Below, one piece after another: positions 4,103 to 58,026 of a stretch of 61,870 nt of DNA. Position numbers and translations under genes: made by a program. Numbering within the stretch: position 1 is the first letter of the stretch; each line of letters opens with the position of its first letter. Below the pieces are notes generated by a model that saw nothing but the letters and a program-made list of their open reading frames with translations, searched no databases and was not told where the DNA came from. The stretch comes from a virus (lineage: Duplodnaviria > Caudoviricetes), in the IMG/VR virus record IMGVR_UViG_3300018411_000001, positions 1 to 61,870 of that record; one strand, given 5' to 3'.

Positions 4103-4353
4103 GGTCGCGGCCCCCTGAAATGGTCGTTGTAAATCTTCATGATGAAATGCCGCAGCCCTATGAGGGCCACGGCGGTGATGATCATCTGATTTGCTGCAAG
4201 GTAGGTCTGCTGGTGTGCCGCAAAGAACGCCGCGAATGCGGCGATTGCGATTGCTGAATAGAGGGTGCGCCCGACCACGCCATCGTTAACCCGGTCACTC
4301 CAGATGCACCAGGCGGCCCAGCCGAACAACACGGCGTACACGACTGTGATCAT
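4099..4353 (-). CDS. Small 3-TM lysis protein (holin/antiholin)
   Basis: Three hydrophobic segments; overlaps both neighbours by 4 nt. Confidence 0.7.
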   Translation of the reverse strand: MITVVYAVLFGWAAWCIWSDRVNDGVVGRTLYSAIAIAAFAAFFAAHQQTYLAANQMIITAVALIGLRHFIMKIYNDHFRGPRP

Positions 4354-4670
4354 TCTGTACCTCCCCCGAACCGTGCGCGGATGAGCGCCCAGAGGTCGGC
4401 TGCTTCAATTGCCTTGAGGACTGCAGCGATGATAGCGCCGCCAAAGGCTCCGAGCAGGAAGCCAATCCCCCCAGATGACTCAGGATCGATGCTCAGGTAC
4501 ACGCACACCGGCTTTGCCAGGAACTGCGCAGTGATGACGCCAGACATGACAAAAGCCATGACCGAGCGTGCCCCCTTGAGATCCCGCTGAAAAGGCAGCG
4601 CCACCAGGGATCCGAAGAACCCGGCGATTGCCCATTGCAGACTGAAATAAAGCTTTTCAAGCCACTCCAT
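4350..4670 (-). CDS. Holin
   Basis: Three TM segments; directly after the endolysin. Confidence 0.75.
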   Translation of the reverse strand: MEWLEKLYFSLQWAIAGFFGSLVALPFQRDLKGARSVMAFVMSGVITAQFLAKPVCVYLSIDPESSGGIGFLLGAFGGAIIAAVLKAIEAADLWALIRARFGGGTE

Positions 4671-5260
4671 CAGGCACCCCCGAACTGTTTGTAAGCGGCG
4701 GCCAGCTTGGTGTCGTATCTGTTGGTAGCGTAGCCAGGCCCGTTGTAGATGCGGGCGAAGGTGGCCCAGTCACCAGCGCGCAGTGCCTTCACCAGTCGGG
4801 GATCCGCCAGGATGAACCGCACAAAGGTTTCGAGCTGTCCACCAGCCGTGTACTGGTCATTGATGAAGCCCTGCATGGTAGTGTACTGCAGCGTCTTCCA
4901 GTGGTAGCCCATGATCTGAAATGCACCCCAGCTCGCAGACTCCAGCGCGCTGGTGCGGTCGATGAGTTCGGCCGCCCGGTTCATGTCCTTGTCTTCTTTG
5001 TCGAGCGACTGGTAACTGCCTGCCTTCTTCGCCACCAGATCGGGATGAGCCACCAGCTCCTTGTCAGCGCGAGCGCGGTTGAAGTTGCTCGCCAGCTGGC
5101 GGTACATCACATGGGGCTCGTACTGGACCTTGACGCGACCATCAGGAAGGAAGCCACCGCCGTTGCTCTCGACGGTGGCCACCGCCTTGACAGCCGGCAC
5201 GCTCACCCCCAGCCGCTTGGCAGCATCCTGGAAGTCGGTTTCGAGTAACGCACTTTTCAT
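4670..5260 (-). CDS. Endolysin, N-acetylmuramidase (DUF3380 type)
   Basis: AVATVES..G, YEPH, SWGAFQIMG, FARIYNG motifs. Confidence 0.92.
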   Translation of the reverse strand: MKSALLETDFQDAAKRLGVSVPAVKAVATVESNGGGFLPDGRVKVQYEPHVMYRQLASNFNRARADKELVAHPDLVAKKAGSYQSLDKEDKDMNRAAELIDRTSALESASWGAFQIMGYHWKTLQYTTMQGFINDQYTAGGQLETFVRFILADPRLVKALRAGDWATFARIYNGPGYATNRYDTKLAAAYKQFGGA

Positions 5261-5300
5261 TGCATGCTCACCTTGTGGTTTGAGCACACGTCATGCGCGC
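5255..5300 (-). promoter_or_regulatory. Endolysin leader hairpin occluding the RBS, carrying GCGCATGACGTG
   Basis: GTGTGCTCA pairs with TGAGCATGC immediately before the ATG; 12-mer at 5287-5298. Confidence 0.65.
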
Positions 5301-5343: not shown

Positions 5344-5372
5344 ACGATATAGCTCCGGCGTTGTTGTTTCAA
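5344..5372 (-). promoter_or_regulatory. Sigma70-like promoter for the lysis cassette
   Basis: TTGAAA-17 nt-TATCGT just after a terminator. Confidence 0.6.
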
Positions 5373-5381
5373 CAACAGAGC

Positions 5382-5410
5382 AAAAAGAAACCCGGCACAG
5401 TGGCCGGGCT
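5382..5410 (-). terminator. Intrinsic terminator
   Basis: CCCGGC/GCCGGG stem followed by TTTCTTTTT on the minus strand. Confidence 0.8.
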
Positions 5411-5428
5411 CCATATTGCATCTTGACG

Positions 5429-15500: not shown

Positions 15501-18500
15501 GCGGGCAATCTTGGCGTCAGGGTAGAGCGCAGTAGCAATGCCAGAGGTGATGCGGTCAAGCTCCACCCCATGCAGGGCAGACGATCCGCGGGCATCCTGC
15601 GGCATAAGGCCAAAGAAGTTACCCACGCCAACTGACGGCTCGATCACGCGGCCACCGGTGAAGCCAAGGCGACCCAGCGCCTTCCACATCCCGTTGACGA
15701 TCTCCGGGCTGGTGTAGTGCGCGTTGCGGGTTGAGGCGGCAGCGGCTGCATACTCCTCTGGGGTCAGCAGGGATTTCAGCTCTGCAACCTGCTTCTCCCA
15801 GCCCTTATTGGCAGTGCCATCAGTGCGCTCGAAAGCGGCCGGTATCCCACCCCACCCTACATACTTGGACAGTGCTGCCTGGTCTGCTGCGGTAACGGCC
15901 CGGCCAGTCTCCTCCAGATCCTTGAGAACACGGATGGCTGCCACGTTGTTGGCGTACTTGGTCTTGTCGCCACCCTGCCCGATCTCCTCGGCATTGATGG
16001 TGAACAGATCGGCCGGCCGGTCTTGAGAGATTACTCCGGCTGCGGGTAGTACGGATCTTCCAGCGGCATCCCCATCACGGCTTGCAGGGCGGCCCCGCTC
16101 TGCTCTGGCCCTTCCTGCTGACTCTGCTCCTCTGGCGGAAACAGGTAGCTCTCCCGTGTCATCTCCCAGGCTTCGTGCTCGGTCATTCCCTGCTGCTCCA
16201 GTTCGTCCATCTCCCTGGCCGTCTGCTGCGCTGCCTGCTGCAGGGCTGCGTCCAGCTTCCCGGACTTCTGCAGCTGCGCGTACAGGCTTGGCCGGTGCTC
16301 CTGCCAGTGCAGGCGAGCTTGACTCACCCAGTTCTGTAGCTGTGCCATTGCGTTCTACCTCTGCGTCAAATTCTGCGACCATCGCATCGAGGCCGCTGGT
16401 GGGTCGGGGTCCAAGTTCATCGGAGGGCCGCTCGGTAGTGGATACCATAGGGGTCGGCTGTTCAACAGGCTGCTTGTTCAGCTTGGCCAGCTCTGCGCGC
16501 ACTGCTTCCGGGCTATCCATGCCATCGATGCTGACATTGCTGTCTTCCATCATATCCCTGGCGCCGTTGTACCAGCTGCGCAGGTAAGGGCGCAGGCGGG
16601 CAAGCGGCATATCCAGATCGGCGGCCATAGCCTTGGCGAAGTCGGAGAACTTGCGGGCGCTGGCTTCAATGTGGAACACGGCAAGCTCGGTACCGATGGC
16701 CAGGATTTCCGGGTCGATACCGCTGTTTAGCTGGGCAAACTTCGCTTTAAGCTTCTGGCGCAGCTCTGCGGCTCGGTCCTGCGACACTAGCTTGTTGTTG
16801 GCGCCGTACTCTGCTTGCTGGCTGGCCTCGGCTTGGACCGGTGCCGTAACTGTTTCTCCGCTTACGCTTTGGGCTGGAAGAACAGATGTTTGGTTCAACT
16901 CTTCAGGGGTGCTTGCAGGTTCAGACTGGGCAGCCACAATCGCCTGCATCACGCCTGCGCGGTCGCTTTCGCTTTTCAGTCCGTTCTTGACGTTGGCGGT
17001 CCACTTCTTCTTCATCGGGTGATCGTCAGGTACCAGCTCAAGCGCGCCCGTGGCCTGCTCGCGCCAACCCCCCTGATTGGCTGGCTTGCCGGAAAGATCA
17101 ATCACCTTGGCTGGCGTGTTGCGCACGCTCTCGCCAGCACTGTTCGCCCAGTAGTCAGCAAGGGGGTCGTCGGTCTTAATTGGGGACTTTGACCCAGCCT
17201 TGTTTTCCCCTTGTTGCGCCGCATGCTCGGCTGTTGCCGTTTCAGCAACAGGCTGGGCACCAACTTTCGACCATTCGACACGACGGGACTTGCCCACCTC
17301 CAGATCCGGCATGCTGACGGTAGCAGTCTCGCCGGTTTCCTGGTTGGTGAGGTAGGTGGTGCCGTTCTTCTCGATCCGGTCTACGGTGTAACGCGCACCA
17401 GGCTGGAGCCCACCGACTTCACCAGACGGTGACACGGTTTGACCTACCTCGCCCACCAGCTTCTTGACCCGATTGACGCGGGGATTGCTCGCCGCCTTCT
17501 TGGGTGCTGCCGGCTTGGGCACCTCTGCAGTGGATGCGCGCAGCTCAAAGCGTCCTGGCTGTACCTCTTGCGGGGCGTAGCCGGTGAGGCCCTTCTTCTC
17601 GATGTGGGCTGCTGCCTTCTCTGCGGTGCTGAACCACTTCGGTTTGCCATCGGCACCGAGCACGGTGTCAGCCTGCTGGGCTGGCTGCTCTTCAACTACT
17701 GGCGCCTTGGCTGCCTGCACCTGGGCATCGAGCACGCGCTCAACCTTGCGGCGCTCATCAGAGAGGCGCTTATCCCAGCCGCCATTGGTCTTGGCCTGAC
17801 GAGCCAGATAGCGCATGCGGTCACGCAGCTCACCTTCATCCATCTGTTCCAGTGACTTCTGAGCGGGGGCTTCTTCCTTGACGGCCGGTTGCGCCGGTGA
17901 ACTGTCAAGGATTTCTCCAGTGTTCGGGTCTACACCCTGCTCTTGCAGGGCCTGCTCGATAGCGGACTGGCGCTCCTGGGTCTGCTGCTCCTCGACCTGG
18001 GCGCGTTCTGCCTTCACCTCTTCCGGGGTGCCTGCATCCTGCATCTGCTGATCGGTGGTGACCTGCGGGGCGGCAGCGGCTGTGATGTCCACTTCGTCAG
18101 GGCTGACAGTGTACGGGGTGCCATCTTCGCCACGAACGGTAACACCGCCGTCGCTTTCGTAGCGCTCAACAGTGGCCACCAGTGCAGACTGGGGATCGCC
18201 CTTGGCCTGCATCTGGATAGTGGCGCCAGGCTCACCGGCCCAGAAATTGCCATTGGCGGCATCAGGTTGCTGGGCAGTGCCGCGGGCAGCACGCTCAAGC
18301 GGGCCAGCATCGTCTGACAGCCCGGTATCATCCCGGCTCGGCGTGGGGGCGGCGGCAACCGCCTCCTCCATAGCAGCCTGTTGCGGGTCTACCTGTGCGG
18401 CTTCTTGTGCGGGAGGGATATCTGCTGCCGGGCCTTGGCCAGCTCGGGGGGCAGCTGCACCCATGCCGGCACCCATGATGCCGCCGACCGCAAGGCCACC

Positions 18501-36672: not shown

Positions 36673-37776
36673 TTATGCGGCGTTCGGGTCTTTCGCTGCG
36701 GTATCGATAGACACCACACCGAAGTCACGCGAGTTGAACCGGGTCTTGGTGATCCCGATGATGGTGCCGGCTGCAACAGTCGGCTCGTTGCCGTAGTCGT
36801 CGGTTTCTTCTTTCCAGTTGAAACGCATGCCACCACCGCCGTTGCCATAGGCAATGACAGCAGCCTGACGACCCATGAACAGCGCACGGCCAGCGTGAAC
36901 GTTCGAGCCAGCGCCGTAATCCTTGAAACGGATCGCGCTTTCGTGGGAGTGCAGCACCACGTTGTTGATCATGCCCAGGCCACCACGGAAGATGGGGTTA
37001 GCCTTGCCCTCGGCACCGGCAGCCGCTTTCTGAACTTCGAGCCAGCCACGTTCGCCGGTTTCGTTGCGCAGGTCGGTTTCCTGGTCGGGGGACATCAGCA
37101 TCACGTAATGCTTCTCGGAACCCACGGTTACCGGCACGAGGCTGGTAGCTTTCGGATCGCGAGCCTGCATCATGCGGGCCTTGTTCACGGCACGCTCCAC
37201 CAGGGAGCGGGACATGGTGTCAGTGGCGGTCAGGGACGCCTTGCTGGTAGCTGCGCCACCAAACATCAGGTGACCACTGTCAGGGGCGCGCAGCGGGTTG
37301 TCAGCGTGACCGGTGTAGTCAACGTCTTCATAGAAGTCTTCGTTGATGCCACGGGCGCCAGACAGGTAGATGAATTTCAGCTCATCCATGTACTTGGCCC
37401 AGTATTCGGACAGACGGTCCTTGGCCACGGTACGCAGGTCGTGCTCGGTGCGCTTGCGGGTCATACGACCACCAGCGGACACGGCATGACGCAGCTGGTC
37501 GATGATCACTTCATCGGTAAAGAACTTGAGCTGTTCTTCCTTACCCTTGATGCGACCATCGCCAGAGGTGGGCTTGCCACGGAGCTTGACGGAAAGGTCG
37601 AAGGAGATCCGGTCGCCAGCAGCAGATTCAATGTCAGTCTTGCGTTGAATGATGCTGTTGTCGCCAGTCCCTTCGAACTTGGTGAAGTAGGCCTGCTTGT
37701 CCGTCTCATTAAAGAGTCGGCCAGACCAGACCTTGACGGCTTTGGGGTCACCAAAGCGGATTACGGTTTGACCCAT
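36673..37776 (-). CDS. Major capsid protein, N4-gp56 family
   Basis: GDRISFDL, G.EE.L.F..DEV.IDQLRH.V, DYGN, DFGV motifs. Confidence 0.93.
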   Translation of the reverse strand: MGQTVIRFGDPKAVKVWSGRLFNETDKQAYFTKFEGTGDNSIIQRKTDIESAAGDRISFDLSVKLRGKPTSGDGRIKGKEEQLKFFTDEVIIDQLRHAVSAGGRMTRKRTEHDLRTVAKDRLSEYWAKYMDELKFIYLSGARGINEDFYEDVDYTGHADNPLRAPDSGHLMFGGAATSKASLTATDTMSRSLVERAVNKARMMQARDPKATSLVPVTVGSEKHYVMLMSPDQETDLRNETGERGWLEVQKAAAGAEGKANPIFRGGLGMINNVVLHSHESAIRFKDYGAGSNVHAGRALFMGRQAAVIAYGNGGGGMRFNWKEETDDYGNEPTVAAGTIIGITKTRFNSRDFGVVSIDTAAKDPNAA

Positions 37777-37831
37777 AGTGCTTGTCCTCAAACGTGCGGG
37801 TTGTCATTGACCGCACGTCATGCGCAGCACT
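37777..37831 (-). promoter_or_regulatory. Capsid leader structure enclosing the RBS, carrying GCGCATGACGTG
   Basis: AGTGCT/AGCACT and ACGTGCGG/CCGCACGT stems flank SD GAGGA; 12-mer at 37814-37825. Confidence 0.65.
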
Positions 37832-37844
37832 TTCAAACGTTGTG

Positions 37845-37873
37845 ATTATCAATCCAGTGTTGTCGAATTGCAA
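37845..37873 (-). promoter_or_regulatory. Sigma70-like promoter for the capsid genes
   Basis: TTGCAA-17 nt-GATAAT. Confidence 0.65.
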
Positions 37874-37888
37874 ACACTGCATCCGTGA

Positions 37889-38071
37889 CTAAACAGCCTC
37901 TTGCGGGGCTTGCCCCTCCTTTTCCTTCCGTTGTGACTTGGGAGTCCTTACCACTACATCATCCGGCGCGTCGATGATCAGCGAGCAAACCTGCCCTGAT
38001 TTGTGCACCATCTTGATTTTTACACCGCCGATCCAGAGGTCTTCACCCAGCTTGAGGTCATGTTTAATCAC
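37889..38071 (-). CDS. Divergent CsrA/RsmA-like RNA-binding protein
   Basis: LKLGEDLWIGGVKIKMV.KSG.VCSLIIDAPDDVVV parallels CsrA R..GE.L.IGD.V.V.VL..G.QVRIG..AP..V.V; SD AGGAG. Confidence 0.75.
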   Translation of the reverse strand: MIKHDLKLGEDLWIGGVKIKMVHKSGQVCSLIIDAPDDVVVRTPKSQRKEKEGQAPQEAV

Positions 38072-38999: not shown

Positions 39000-41297
39000 T
39001 TATTGCAGGCCTAACGCCTGCGGTTGTGGTTGGGATTCTTGGGGTGCAGCTTCTTGCTGCATGGCCTGTTGCTGCATCTGTTGTGCAGCCATGGCTTGTT
39101 CTGTCTGGGCGGCCACGTCCTCCTCTTCTGTGCGAGACACATAGCCAGCTTCGTGAAGCATACCATCTGCGACCCGTATTGCGCCTGGGGAACTTATCGC
39201 CATGAGTGCAGCCTCGATGGCCTTGGTCTGTGTGGCCACGTTCTCGCCGGCCAGGGTGCCCATGATCTGGCGTATGGTAGCCATCGTCTTCTGGATGTCT
39301 GCCTGGTCCTTGCCGGCCTTGGCCTCTTTGGCTGCAATGTCGGCCATGGCGGCGCGCATCTGCAGCTCTTGCTGCTGTGCTGCTGCCTGGTCCTTGGCGT
39401 CCTGCTCGGCCTGCTCTTCCGGTGTCAGCTCTTCCTGGTCCGGGTCTCTCATGCCGGTAACCTGGCGGATCCGCTTCACGATTTCATCACGGCTGGCGAT
39501 GTCCATGCCTTCAACAATGAGGTCGAGCATAACCATAGCAACCTGGGGAGCGACTGGTGCGAGCTGTTGCAGCAGGCCGAACAGCTCTTCTGTCTGTGCC
39601 TGGCGCACGCTTGCTCGCCAATCCTGGTCACTGATGATGAAATCAGCCTTGCTGCGGGTGATGTCGTTCTCGGGTAGGCCGTCATTCACCTCGATGTACT
39701 CAGGGGTGCCGCGCATGTTTGTGATGCGGAACTGCTTGCGCTCACTGAAATACTGCTCGATGAGGGACAGCTCCTTTTGACCATGCACCTGCACGGCAAA
39801 GCGCAGGTTATCGAAGATCCCCGCAGTGGCCATGGCGCCCTGCTCTTGTCTGCGACCGATAGCCAGACCGCTGGTGGCATTGGTCTGGCGGCCCATGTTC
39901 TCATCTGTCACACCGGACAGGCTCTGGATCATGGATATGGAACGGCTCATCAGGTCGAGATGTGCCGGCGCCAGCTCGCGCTCGGCGTTGATGGTCATCT
40001 CGTGACCCTTCTTCTTGATGAGGATAGCGTCAGGCCGGCCGACTTCCTCCCGGAACTCATCCAGGTCATCGACTGCGCCCTCGTCCATGATCACCTTGTT
40101 GGTGGACAGGATGTAGAGCGCCTTGGATGCCCGCTTGTTGATGTCCTCCTGGATATCGCGCATGCCACGGATCATGCCGTAGGGCAGGCCGTCACGGCTG
40201 CGGCGGTAACACCAGATCGGGGTAAAGGGGAAATCGTTGTGGCGGTAAGGGGATTCGTCGAGGTAGAGCATGCCCACATCGCACAGCAAGGCGACGTGCA
40301 TGCGCATCATGGTACGCAGTGCCGGTACACCCTCGCCCTTCTGAATGCTCTCCTGGTGGCCAGTGGCCGGGCTCTCTTCGTCATACACCTCGCCGGCAAA
40401 GTCGCCGCCGACCATCCGCATGACCTTCTTGGGCTTGCGGTACCAGATCTCCATCACCCGCACACGCAGGCGCTTTTGACCGTTGACGACTGCCATCTGC
40501 GAGGAATAGCCATTGAGGCTGTCCTCTTGGCTGTCCATGGCTTCATCACCCAGCTGGTCGAGGCCAGAGTAGTAGGCGCTGCCAGAGGCTGATGCCCGCA
40601 GTGTGCCGCAGCGGTCAGGGAAGATGGCCTCAGCGATATCGAGGTCAAGCCACTTGGAGCGAATGACATAGCGGCAGTCAGACAGGTCTTTTGCAGTGCA
40701 GGCGCTATCCCACAGCATATTGCGCCAGCTCTCGTAGCGCATGGTCACAGGCTCGCCGTCGTCCTCGTTCTGGACGCTGCTCTCCATCCAGCCCACGCCG
40801 ACCTTTACGCAATCCTCGAATGCGCTGGAGCGATGGAACGGGGACATGTTCACATCACTCAGGTACTTCATCAGTTGGGTCTTGCGCTCGGCAGGCTTGG
40901 CGGCATCCTTGCGGCGGGGGAGGATCCGGTAATCAGTGCGGCCGCGCTTCTCGGTACCCAGCACCCAGTTAACGGCACCGGCTATGACGTTGTAGACCAG
41001 AGGCATCTGGCCACGGTCCCGCAGCTCCTTGGCGTCATCCTCTCGCCACTGGATGTTGTCATAGAAGTCAGCATCAACCGCCATATCGACGCGGTTCTCT
41101 GACTGTCGGTCCAGCTCATCCTGATAGATACCCAGCAGCAGCCTGTGCTGCTCGACCATCGCAGGGCTATCCAGTGGGTTGCGCTGCTCCTGCTCCCGGT
41201 CATCGCTTGCCTTTTCAAGGCGGGAGTATGGGTCACGACTGTCAAGCCGCCCCTCGGCAAAGTCCATGCCGGTGTTCTTATGCTCTGCATCAAACAC
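39000..41297 (-). CDS. Portal protein (P22/N4-like)
   Basis: DFYDNIQW, RGQ.PLVYN, LPYGMIR..RD.Q..INKR, SG.AI..RQ.QG; Gln-rich barrel tail. Confidence 0.92.
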   Translation of the reverse strand: MFDAEHKNTGMDFAEGRLDSRDPYSRLEKASDDREQEQRNPLDSPAMVEQHRLLLGIYQDELDRQSENRVDMAVDADFYDNIQWREDDAKELRDRGQMPLVYNVIAGAVNWVLGTEKRGRTDYRILPRRKDAAKPAERKTQLMKYLSDVNMSPFHRSSAFEDCVKVGVGWMESSVQNEDDGEPVTMRYESWRNMLWDSACTAKDLSDCRYVIRSKWLDLDIAEAIFPDRCGTLRASASGSAYYSGLDQLGDEAMDSQEDSLNGYSSQMAVVNGQKRLRVRVMEIWYRKPKKVMRMVGGDFAGEVYDEESPATGHQESIQKGEGVPALRTMMRMHVALLCDVGMLYLDESPYRHNDFPFTPIWCYRRSRDGLPYGMIRGMRDIQEDINKRASKALYILSTNKVIMDEGAVDDLDEFREEVGRPDAILIKKKGHEMTINAERELAPAHLDLMSRSISMIQSLSGVTDENMGRQTNATSGLAIGRRQEQGAMATAGIFDNLRFAVQVHGQKELSLIEQYFSERKQFRITNMRGTPEYIEVNDGLPENDITRSKADFIISDQDWRASVRQAQTEELFGLLQQLAPVAPQVAMVMLDLIVEGMDIASRDEIVKRIRQVTGMRDPDQEELTPEEQAEQDAKDQAAAQQQELQMRAAMADIAAKEAKAGKDQADIQKTMATIRQIMGTLAGENVATQTKAIEAALMAISSPGAIRVADGMLHEAGYVSRTEEEDVAAQTEQAMAAQQMQQQAMQQEAAPQESQPQPQALGLQ

Positions 41298-41709
41298 GTT
41301 TGACAATCTCCTGGTGGGTGACCTTGCCAGTGTCTGTGTCAGTGCGGAACGCATCACCAACTACGACAGTCTTGAGGGGCTTGACCGGCATCTTCACCAG
41401 ATCGCCCAGGTGGTCATGAATGAGGGACAGCACGCGCATGTGGGTGATGCCATTCACGTAGTCCATGCCGTTTGCCTGCAGGAACTGCATAACCAGGGCA
41501 GCGGAAGCGCGGGGGCTGACTTCGGGATCGTCAGGGTTCCAGCGGAAAGCGGAATCCAGCTCGACAACCAGCGGGGTGCCAGGCTTGAAGGCGGGCATAA
41601 CGACAAGGCAGGGCCTGAGCCGTTCACCGTACCAGCTGCCGTACAGCGTAAGGTCGCCCCGCGTCTTCACGAAGTGCGATTGTGTCAGGTCCAAATCGAA
41701 GTGCGTCAT
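41290..41709 (-). CDS. Hypothetical protein between terL and portal
   Basis: Clean ORF overlapping the portal start. Confidence 0.75.
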   Translation of the reverse strand: MTHFDLDLTQSHFVKTRGDLTLYGSWYGERLRPCLVVMPAFKPGTPLVVELDSAFRWNPDDPEVSPRASAALVMQFLQANGMDYVNGITHMRVLSLIHDHLGDLVKMPVKPLKTVVVGDAFRTDTDTGKVTHQEIVKRV

Positions 41710-57477: not shown

Positions 57478-58026
57478 ATGAACCTCCATGAAGCACAGGT
57501 GGCGCGTTACGCGGCCATCGCAAAGGCTGAGGAAGTGGTAGCGAGCAACTTTGAAACCGCCCTCATGCTGATGAAAGCCGGCAAGCGCGTCATGCGCCGC
57601 GGCTGGAACGGCAAGGGCCAGTTCGTTTGGCTGGCATCGGTCGGCACAATGCCGCAGGACTACGACACCAGCCCCTGCCGCGAGCTGGAGTGGTCAAGCA
57701 CCCTGATGCTGCGCAATGCACAGAACAAGCTGGCCACCTGGGGGCCATCTATTGGCGACATCCTGGCGGAAGACTGGGACTTGTACGAAGAGCGGCAGGA
57801 TCTGACTATCTCCGACCACCAGCACCAGGCACTTGAAGAGCTGGAGCAGATCACCGAGAAGCTGGCCAGCCTCACAGCCTTTATCAACGACCCTGGCTCT
57901 ACCTTCTCAATGCTCAGCACAGATGAGCAGCACCAGCTGCGCATGAAGGCATCCTACCAGGAAGACTATGCGCGGGCTCTCAAGCGCATTGCGGACGGCT
58001 TGGGCGGTGAAGGGGGTTCTGTATGA
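57478..58026 (+). CDS. Tad2/DUF2829-like sponge domain fused to a crAss001_48-like helical domain
   Basis: FETAL..MKAGKRV.RRGWNGKGQFV.L and W.PS..DILAEDW; C-terminal E..Q..EKL..L.AFI..F..L..EQ..L. Confidence 0.8.
   Translation: MNLHEAQVARYAAIAKAEEVVASNFETALMLMKAGKRVMRRGWNGKGQFVWLASVGTMPQDYDTSPCRELEWSSTLMLRNAQNKLATWGPSIGDILAEDWDLYEERQDLTISDHQHQALEELEQITEKLASLTAFINDPGSTFSMLSTDEQHQLRMKASYQEDYARALKRIADGLGGEGGSV

Follow-up and report, generated by a model that had tools for sequence, protein, structure and literature searches.

The window considered here is the entire 61,870-nt IMG/VR virus record IMGVR_UViG_3300018411_000001 (positions 1–61,870). On its minus strand the genes run from the large terminase through the portal and a scaffold-like gene to a 60-amino-acid (aa) open reading frame (ORF), and 112 nt of non-coding DNA separate this ORF from the major capsid gene (Table 1). 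The ORF, which has an AGGAG 7 nt upstream of its GTG, encodes a relative of the translational regulator CsrA. The non-coding stretch holds a promoter-like site followed by the capsid leader, in which the order is AGUGCU, the 13-mer GCGCAUGACGUGC (37825–37813), GG, an 11-nt loop, CCGCACGU, the Shine-Dalgarno (SD) sequence GAGGA, AGCACU and the ATG. The 13-mer can fold into a small hairpin, here called the operator, and a further copy lies in front of the lysis genes. On balance, we favour a model in which the small protein is a phage-private activator of the CsrA family that would bind this conserved leader hairpin and so turn on translation of the capsid and lysis genes.

The small ORF is, as the original prediction had it, a CsrA-fold gene; it is lodged between the scaffold gene on one side and the promoter-like site and capsid leader on the other. 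Its product matches the PHROGs family phrog_8397, 'CsrA-like regulator' (E 2.2e-17), and a gene with that annotation is already recorded at the same position in Pavtok, PEp14, Itty13, LASTA, Parlo, BcepIL02, Skulduggery, GP4 and DC1; the window gene agrees with them both in the portal-scaffold-CsrA-like position and in the phrog_8397 profile. A profile built from 39 phage homologues (the window protein and its IMG/VR relatives) matches RsmE (2jpp, E 5e-13), E. coli CsrA (1y00, E 1e-10) and seven further CsrA-family chains, and 35 of the 39 proteins match PF02599 at E <= 0.01. As judged from these alignments, homology to CsrA is established through the family profile and not through the window sequence alone. 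The AlphaFold2 model of the window protein has a predicted local distance difference test score of 83.5 overall, above 90 over residues 1–40 and 52–70 over residues 41–60. Foldseek places CsrA, RsmA or RsmE chains at all of ranks 1–11, with template modelling scores of 0.57–0.69; the best E-value is 0.017, these values being weak because the protein is tiny, and five of the top 10 matches superpose with a root-mean-square deviation of 0.8 Å over 44 columns. In the model, residues 1–44 have the beta-strand core fold of a CsrA monomer. A two-copy homodimer prediction scored 0.28 against a mark of 0.42, which counts neither for nor against.

The residues through which CsrA contacts RNA lie in strands 1 and 5 and, from mutagenesis, comprise L2, L4, R6, R7, V40, V42, R44 and I47. 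The window protein does not keep this set: it has I2, H4, L6, K7, two valines, R opposite H43 and T opposite R44. In the PDB alignment window R42/T43/P44 stand opposite RsmE H43/R44/E45 and L6/K7 opposite R6/K7, and from position 2 to position 7 the window reads I, K, H, D, L, K where RsmE reads L, I, L, T, R, K. The divergence that had been noted at these strands, IKHD for LILT(R) and VRTP for HREE, is correctly described when set beside this alignment and the printed CsrA/RsmE chains. Relatives whose hairpins carry GGA loops retain L2, L/I4, K/R7, V40 and I42, and 29 of 31 proteins also keep R/K44.

The operator is a conserved feature of the capsid leader. Across 90 capsid loci (80 from IMG/VR with capsids of 58–97% identity, the window and nine named phages), a hairpin of the form GCGC-A-N-GA-(N)-GUGC stands 24–48 nt before the capsid ATG in 83, hairpins being called on a GCGC/GUGC stem with at least six of the eight stem bases identical and a loop of 4–6 nt containing GA. 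Six of the remaining seven loci have the variant GCGCAGGAGCUGC and one (L047) is without an obvious element. With redundant loci included, the loop is AUGAC in 21 cases, AGGA in 20, AAGAC in 13, AGGAU and AGGAG in six each, AGGAC in five and AUGGAA in four, the rest being six rarer forms; 41 of the 83 lack GGA, and C at loop position N is found in none of these 83 capsid-leader loops. About half of the loci have an element that by its sequence would pass for a classical CsrA site, with a C-G pair closing the stem beneath an A(N)GGA(X) loop; the window's clade lacks one G of the GGA. In each of the 42 distinct versions, all four core pairs are standard. Changes that keep the pairing are C-G to G-C (four rows), G-C to A-U (one), G-U to A-U (one) and C-G to U-G (two), and the stem covariation score of 0.216, compared with 0.103 in shuffles, was reached by none of 500. 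Applied to 14 leaders from the wider clade of the window, RNAalifold predicts exactly the operator hairpin, with seven pairs; in the capsid leader of the window the stem likewise extends to seven pairs over 37810–37828 (GCUGCGC/GUGCGGU).

The gene accompanies the hairpin. In 67 of the 90 loci, the 1.5 kb upstream of the capsid gene contain a CsrA-like ORF. Among the other 23, seven had less than 600 nt of flank, and all five that are whole records carry the gene elsewhere, as do PBC5 and Atu_ph08. In the nine named relatives first fetched the gene follows a scaffold homologue, with one extra ORF in between in BcepIL02, DC1 and GP4. In PBC5, Atu_ph08 and the L065 record it comes directly after a scaffold-like gene, some 30 kb from the capsid and lysis leaders, and the protein would therefore have to act in trans. 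Two outgroups, Paracoccus KLEP18-1 (capsid 34% identity) and VT2-Sakai (31%), have neither a CsrA-like gene at E <= 0.1 nor such a leader hairpin. Of the scan of related phages that had been put forward as a check, the co-occurrence part came out in favour of the link, the gene being present in every related phage tested. A different capsid is found in F116, 8P and Dartukuta, our most telling control, which carry the CsrA-like gene inside the structural module; three, four and three copies of GCGC-A-N-GA-GUG(C/U), respectively, occur in these phages, all on the sense strand, orthologous across the three and most of them just before late-gene starts (F116 p48, p49 and p53). F116 has in addition a second CsrA-family gene (16466–16600, minus strand; 123 aa) outside the structural module, with an N-terminus near canonical CsrA and a long C-terminal extension.

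The lysis leader holds the 12-mer that had been claimed for it: the first 12 of the 13 bases of GCGCAUGACGUGC recur at 5298–5287, as part of an operator copy 25 nt upstream of the ATG (5260) of an N-acetylmuramidase gene (PF11860, E 1.5e-52), which the holin gene follows. The 3' half of this copy also pairs with the segment just before the ATG. Allowing one mismatch, the 13-mer has three matches in the window where 0.31 are expected, and none of 100 shuffles reaches three. The third match, GCGCAUGACGCGC at 57585–57597 on the minus strand, is antisense to a plus-strand ORF, has no start codon downstream and is probably due to chance. Between the upstream gene and the lysis promoter-like site lies a strong terminator-like hairpin of 10 pairs with a T-run (5387–5412, minus strand), and the lysis cassette therefore appears to be a transcription unit of its own. 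Searches of the whole genomes or intergenic regions of 12 phages found an operator copy before the first lysis gene in nine: the window, Pavtok, Itty13, LASTA, Parlo, Skulduggery, the L065 provirus record, PBC5 and Atu_ph08. Muramidase homologues stand behind it in the first five, and in Skulduggery it lies 25 nt before a lysozyme gene. In L065, PBC5 and Atu_ph08 the capsid and lysis genes diverge from one short spacer, with the hairpin in both leaders. Since the lysis genes behind the operator are annotated variously as PF11860 muramidase, lysozyme, DUF847 and, in L065, endolysin (chitinase-like by eye only), it is the regulatory element that is conserved and not the adjoining gene. PBC5 has extra copies at 961 (+), 14018 (+) and 32733 (−); one lies 24 nt before the giant DarB-like gp22, one 23 nt before the virion protein gp19, and the third has an annotated integrase start codon as its loop AUG. 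Second pattern matches in DC1 (46734) and 8P (46903), which lie near no start codon, are attributed to chance.

How might a small hairpin control translation from this position? In every clade its 3' half, often together with the loop GA, is complementary to the segment from SD to start or to the start codon itself: GGAUGUGC pairs with GCACAUCC in BcepIL02, GACGUG with CACGUC in L045 and in the Itty13 endolysin leader, and CAUGAGUGC with GCACUCAUG in PBC5. In the capsid leader of the window an outer stem joins AGUGCU (37831–37826) to AGCACU (37782–37777), an inner stem joins ACGUGCGG (37818–37811) to CCGCACGU (37799–37792), and the ribosome-binding site (RBS) is buried between them. This two-stem fold is drawn as the original prediction described it and is the minimum-free-energy structure of the leader (−22.7 kcal/mol), though an energetically ordinary one, as discussed below. 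Over 63 distinct capsid leaders, the computed cost of opening −14 to +6 is 13.7 kcal/mol, compared with 6.9 kcal/mol when the flanks are shuffled. Forcing the small hairpin to form cuts this cost by a mean of 6.96 kcal/mol, against 0.50 kcal/mol with shuffled flanks (Mann-Whitney p 1e-35); the drop exceeds 1 kcal/mol in 59 of the 63 leaders, and in 55 it is reached by at most one of 20 shuffles. Eight lysis leaders show drops of 3.0–11.8 kcal/mol (the L065 start being off by a few bases). Pairing between operator region and RBS segment is stronger when both come from one leader than when the segment is taken from another (−13.95 versus −10.25 kcal/mol, Wilcoxon p 2e-8). The small hairpin and the RBS-burying fold cannot form together, and by default the leader is closed. 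A candidate second binding site at the SD, (GC)AUGAGG, was rejected; it is present in several capsid leaders and was not seen in the lysis leaders. A search of Rfam found no family that reaches gathering score anywhere in the window, nor any at E <= 1 within 37700–37950.

The model that we draw from the computed family membership, the fold of residues 1–44, the conservation, pairing and position of the hairpin, the co-occurrence of gene and hairpin and the mutual exclusion of the two folds would run as follows. The regulator is probably produced together with portal and scaffold. Its cognate site would be the hairpin near the 5' end of the capsid and endolysin-holin mRNAs, with a GCGC/GUGC stem that includes a conserved G-U pair and an A-N-G-A-(N) loop. 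In an unbound leader the 3' half of the hairpin would pair with the SD-to-start segment and keep the RBS shut. The protein would bind the small hairpin and lock it, probably during transcription because the hairpin is transcribed first; the locked hairpin would leave the downstream segment free and translation could start. Capsid and lysis proteins would be made only once the portal-scaffold operon has supplied enough regulator. Activation through opening of the leader hairpins had been predicted at the outset: the competition between operator and RBS-burying fold stands, and opening is its most economical reading, whereas the binding and its direction are presumed in that reading. More tentatively, and with less than even confidence, we extend the model to a recognition code private to these phage proteins, in which a fixed GCGC/GUGC stem containing a G-U pair would carry an A-N-G-A loop and GGA is dispensable. 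Such a code could define a late regulon that is post-transcriptional and self-contained, and that is shared by at least two unrelated lineages of phages whose hosts have or lack Csr. Its targets would be the capsid and lysis genes of Bcep22-like phages and, among F116-like phages, tail or virion genes. The need for the stem, and not a change from GGA to UGA, might insulate the regulon from host CsrA and its sponge RNAs, and control could be by activation or repression according to the place of the operator relative to the SD.

Several observations weigh against the activator model. Taken alone, the window protein is a weak match to the Pfam CsrA family PF02599 (E 1.1e-4, 22.5 bits, cut-off 27), and in the PDB it matches only RsmE, with an E-value of 0.43. 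The C-terminal alpha-helix after strand 5 is absent from the model according to DSSP, a proline occupies the RsmE E45 position, T stands where RsmE has R44, and H and L are found at positions 4 and 6. RsmE reads the GGA bases by its backbone and these are said not to be replaceable in the accessible part of Duss et al. (PMC4005645), because of which a CsrA fold binding AUGAC would not be expected from known structures. The fold of the window's capsid leader is no better than chance (z −1.05; 27 of 200 shuffles fold equally well), the stem covariation rests on few events because the operator is mostly invariant, and a lysis-leader copy was not found in BcepIL02, DC1 and GP4 with the patterns used. 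A looser operator pattern gives two copies in the window, a count reached by 11 of 100 shuffles, and the per-genome motif count is not significant in four of eight genomes (shuffles per 100 reaching the total: Itty13 0, PBC5 0, F116 3, LASTA 3, window 11, Parlo 11, Pavtok 30, BcepIL02 67). As we read these sequences, the weight of the operator case comes from the conserved position across phages and not from the count in the window. Finally, one F116-type site has an AGGA loop 3–6 nt before an ATG, where it would itself serve as SD; binding there should repress, and the direction of control may therefore differ from site to site.

This last site leads to an alternative that we consider fairly unlikely, in which the same protein and operator repress translation, as in classical CsrA control or the coat protein-operator pair of RNA phages, or mainly shield the 5' end of the mRNA from decay. 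Protein bound at the F116-type AGGA loop would block the ribosome, and the GGA in the SD of many capsid leaders could be a second site for a dimer. The window's capsid hairpin starts about 13 nt past the predicted transcript start, and 5' hairpins at such positions can stabilise mRNAs. A repressor would however gain little because the RBS is predicted to be already closed, the operator pairing burying it in 59 of 63 unbound capsid leaders, and a conserved second site is not seen in the lysis leaders. The leader structures could also act in cis without any protein, setting the level of translation or the stability of the mRNA, and the gene would then be a moron directed against host mRNAs or defences. 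Moron is the label given to the CsrA-like gene in the JC1 study, which in its accessible part also reports one peptide of the product in virions (PMC9144972), and CRISPR-Cas suppression by phage RsmA homologues is proposed by Campa et al. in the text available (PMC8450108); the link from protein to hairpin, moreover, is an indirect one. We nevertheless regard this as improbable in view of the fixed place of the gene in the virion-assembly operon in hosts of at least five genera, the CsrA-site type of the hairpin, and the recurrence of the same hairpin with the gene family before other target genes in F116-like phages. Burkholderia and Sinorhizobium hosts, besides, are said in the available part of one survey to lack a Csr system with which to interfere (PMC7366521). 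It is very improbable, to our mind, that the 13-mer acts as DNA and is the operator of a transcription factor just past the two late promoters. The 13-mer lies 19 nt past the capsid −10 hexamer and is mostly invariant in sequence, but it is always in the orientation of the gene, it keeps its distance to the start codon (24–48 nt) and not to the −10 hexamer (19 versus about 45 nt in the window), its stem has a conserved G-U pair and changes in ways that keep RNA pairing, and it is complementary to the RBS segment.

The original prediction went further and held that the protein of the window's clade reads UGA in place of GGA, and would be orthogonal to host CsrA and its sponge RNAs. Six distinct proteins have His4 (those of the window, L013, L014, L017, Pavtok and PEp14), and their capsid loops are all AUGAC; in the sister clade this position is Ile or Tyr and the loop is AAGAC; Arg or Lys at the R44 position is found in 29 of 31 distinct proteins with GGA loops and in six of 29 without; and host CsrA would not be expected to bind a non-GGA loop, going by the accessible part of PMC4005645. 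The association of His4 with AUGAC is nevertheless, as the sequences are distributed, a single evolutionary event, Itty13 (Ile4) has an AUGAC endolysin site, and covariation of protein and loop at R44 fades on seven independent contrasts (median p 0.25). The switch itself is not supported by the related phages, in which loop base N may be G, A or U and can differ between sites of the same phage. The sites of single phages read AAGAC and AUGAC in Itty13, AAGAC and UGGAC in Parlo, AAGAC and AGGAC in L065, AUGA and AUGAC in PBC5, AUGA and AGGA in 8P, and AUGA, AGGA and AAGA in Dartukuta, so that these six phages mix G, A or U at N among their own sites; Skulduggery likewise has UGGAU and AUGAU; one orthologous F116-type site has N = G, U and A in the three phages with flanks otherwise identical. 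Because N varies between the sites of a single phage, there is no clade-specific loop code. Nor is there support for escape from host CsrA as a driving force. S. meliloti, the host of PBC5, is said to lack csrA in the available text of PMC7366521, and PBC5 has UGA-type loops (AUGA and AUGAC), while GGA-type loops occur in Pseudomonas and Serratia phages; a restriction of non-GGA loops to phages of CsrA-bearing hosts was rejected on PBC5 and on the GGA of Skulduggery and the Parlo endolysin site. We judge the UGA code to be quite unlikely. The oddity, on the sequences compared, is family-wide, a near-invariant stem with a loop that appears to need only A-N-G-A, and insulation from host Csr by a route other than UGA for GGA is plausible.

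The remaining features of the window place the locus in its genome. By its 4542-aa ORF and nearest relatives the window is a member of the Bcep22-like podophages; these relatives are the Erwinia phages Pavtok and PEp14, Pseudomonas Itty13, Klebsiella LASTA, Serratia Parlo and Burkholderia BcepIL02, Bcep22 and DC1. In Pavtok, Itty13 and Skulduggery the counterpart of the giant ORF bears a DarB-like antirestriction annotation (methylase, helicase, transglycosylase). The capsid promoter-like site is represented by two overlapping matches, compared with 0.3 expected. Its −35 region falls within an inverted repeat (37851–37879, minus strand) that occupies the same place in L001–L006, L016, L035, L051 and L057. 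From one phage to another its two arms vary in concert (GTGTTTGC..CAACAC, CGTTTGC..GCAAACG, GGTTGC..AACC). The repeat might serve a DNA-binding regulator as its operator, or fold into a hairpin in the RNA at the end of the upstream transcript. Freshwater metagenome runs match the window sequence and may be where it came from. For four RNA or possibly RNA runs, available as contigs only, contigs of X16, X17 and X20 span the capsid 5' end and leader, one as far as 37901; these were not used as evidence because contigs cannot show a transcript start or prove transcription.

Table 1. Positions of the genes and regulatory features discussed in the text; coordinates are those of the window unless a phage is named.
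Feature	Position	Strand	Details
P22-type portal	39000–41360	−	PF16510
Scaffold-like gene, 303 aa	38082–38993	−	phrog_8246
CsrA-like gene, 60 aa	37889–38071	−	GTG start at 38071, TAG stop at 37889–37891
Capsid promoter-like site, sigma-70-like TTGCAA-17-GATAAT	37873–37845	−	
Operator hairpin GCGC-AUGAC-GUGC, capsid leader, sequence GCGCATGACGTGC	37813–37825	−	
Alternative RBS-burying fold	37777–37831	−	outer and inner stems, SD GAGGA 37789–37785, ATG 37776
Major capsid gene, proposed first target	36673–37776	−	PF13252, E 1.2e-74
Giant ORF, 4542 aa	6585–20213	−	
Lysis promoter-like site TTGAAA-17-TATCGT	5344–5372	−	
Second operator copy GCGC-AUGAC-GUGU, sequence GCGCATGACGTGT	5286–5298	−	lysis-cassette leader
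Lysis cassette, proposed second target	4350–5260	−	N-acetylmuramidase endolysin 4670–5260, holin 4350–4670
F116-type operator sites	F116 33512, 33966, 39450	+	L139–L142; 8P L150/L155/L159; Dartukuta L151/L156/L160

What is new here, and what are its implications? The gene family and its annotation are already known: the CsrA-like gene is annotated in GenBank and PHROGs, and DC1, GP4 and F116 proteins are included in published lists of phage CsrA homologues, as far as the accessible parts of these surveys go (PMC7366521, PMC8450108). The earlier statement that no description of the system was known therefore holds for the operator and its target genes, which are what is new, and not for the gene. 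In the full-text literature we found no description of the operator, of the capsid-plus-lysis target set or of the RBS switch, supplements being outside the reach of the search, so that an earlier remark on the leader motif could have escaped it. CsrA is among the best-studied bacterial translational regulators, and phage CsrA-like genes have so far been treated as morons or anti-host tools. If the activator model is correct, it would give phage CsrA-like proteins a concrete function, a translational checkpoint by which the assembly operon is coupled to head production and the timing of lysis. A natural CsrA-fold protein that tolerates non-GGA loops would be a further gain, bearing on how the fold reads RNA and possibly yielding an orthogonal protein-RNA switch for synthetic biology and phage engineering.

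The proposed mode of action has precedents. E. coli CsrA activates translation of ymdA by opening a hairpin that sequesters the SD, and in both cases a CsrA-family protein is proposed to bind upstream and prevent a structure that hides the SD; there, however, the protein and gene belong to the host and the sites are GGA sites, whereas here regulator and sites are phage-borne and conserved as a unit. The Com protein of phage Mu is a small RNA-binding protein that binds a leader hairpin in the late mRNA of mom and frees the buried RBS. The likeness is in mode of action only, Com being a zinc-finger protein unrelated to CsrA and having one target. CsrA-family genes are likewise carried by other mobile elements (CsrT of a Legionella integrative and conjugative element, plasmid Rsm proteins, lists of phage homologues; Sobrero and Valverde 2020, PMC7366521; Campa et al. 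2021, PMC8450108); in their accessible parts these papers treat such genes as modulators of host physiology or defence and describe no cis target in the element's own late genes. The closest comparison is with CsrA, RsmA and RsmE at their A(N)GGAX hairpins (2jpp, 2mf0–2mfh; Duss et al. 2014, PMC4005645, in the part available), the protein being homologous to the phage family. As in those sites, the phage loop is 4–6 nt long, starts with A and sits on a short stem closed by C-G, and in roughly half of the related phages it is a true AGGA(N) or AUGGAA loop. The phage element differs in that GGA is absent from the loop in the window's clade and, in all, in 41 of the 83 hairpin loci, whose loops read AUGAC, AAGAC, AUGA and the like, and in that its GCGC/GUGC stem is near-invariant whereas canonical stems vary. 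The window protein, for its part, lacks R44 and, in the model, the C-terminal helix, and in place of a global host regulon it would serve two targets, both of them genes of the phage itself.

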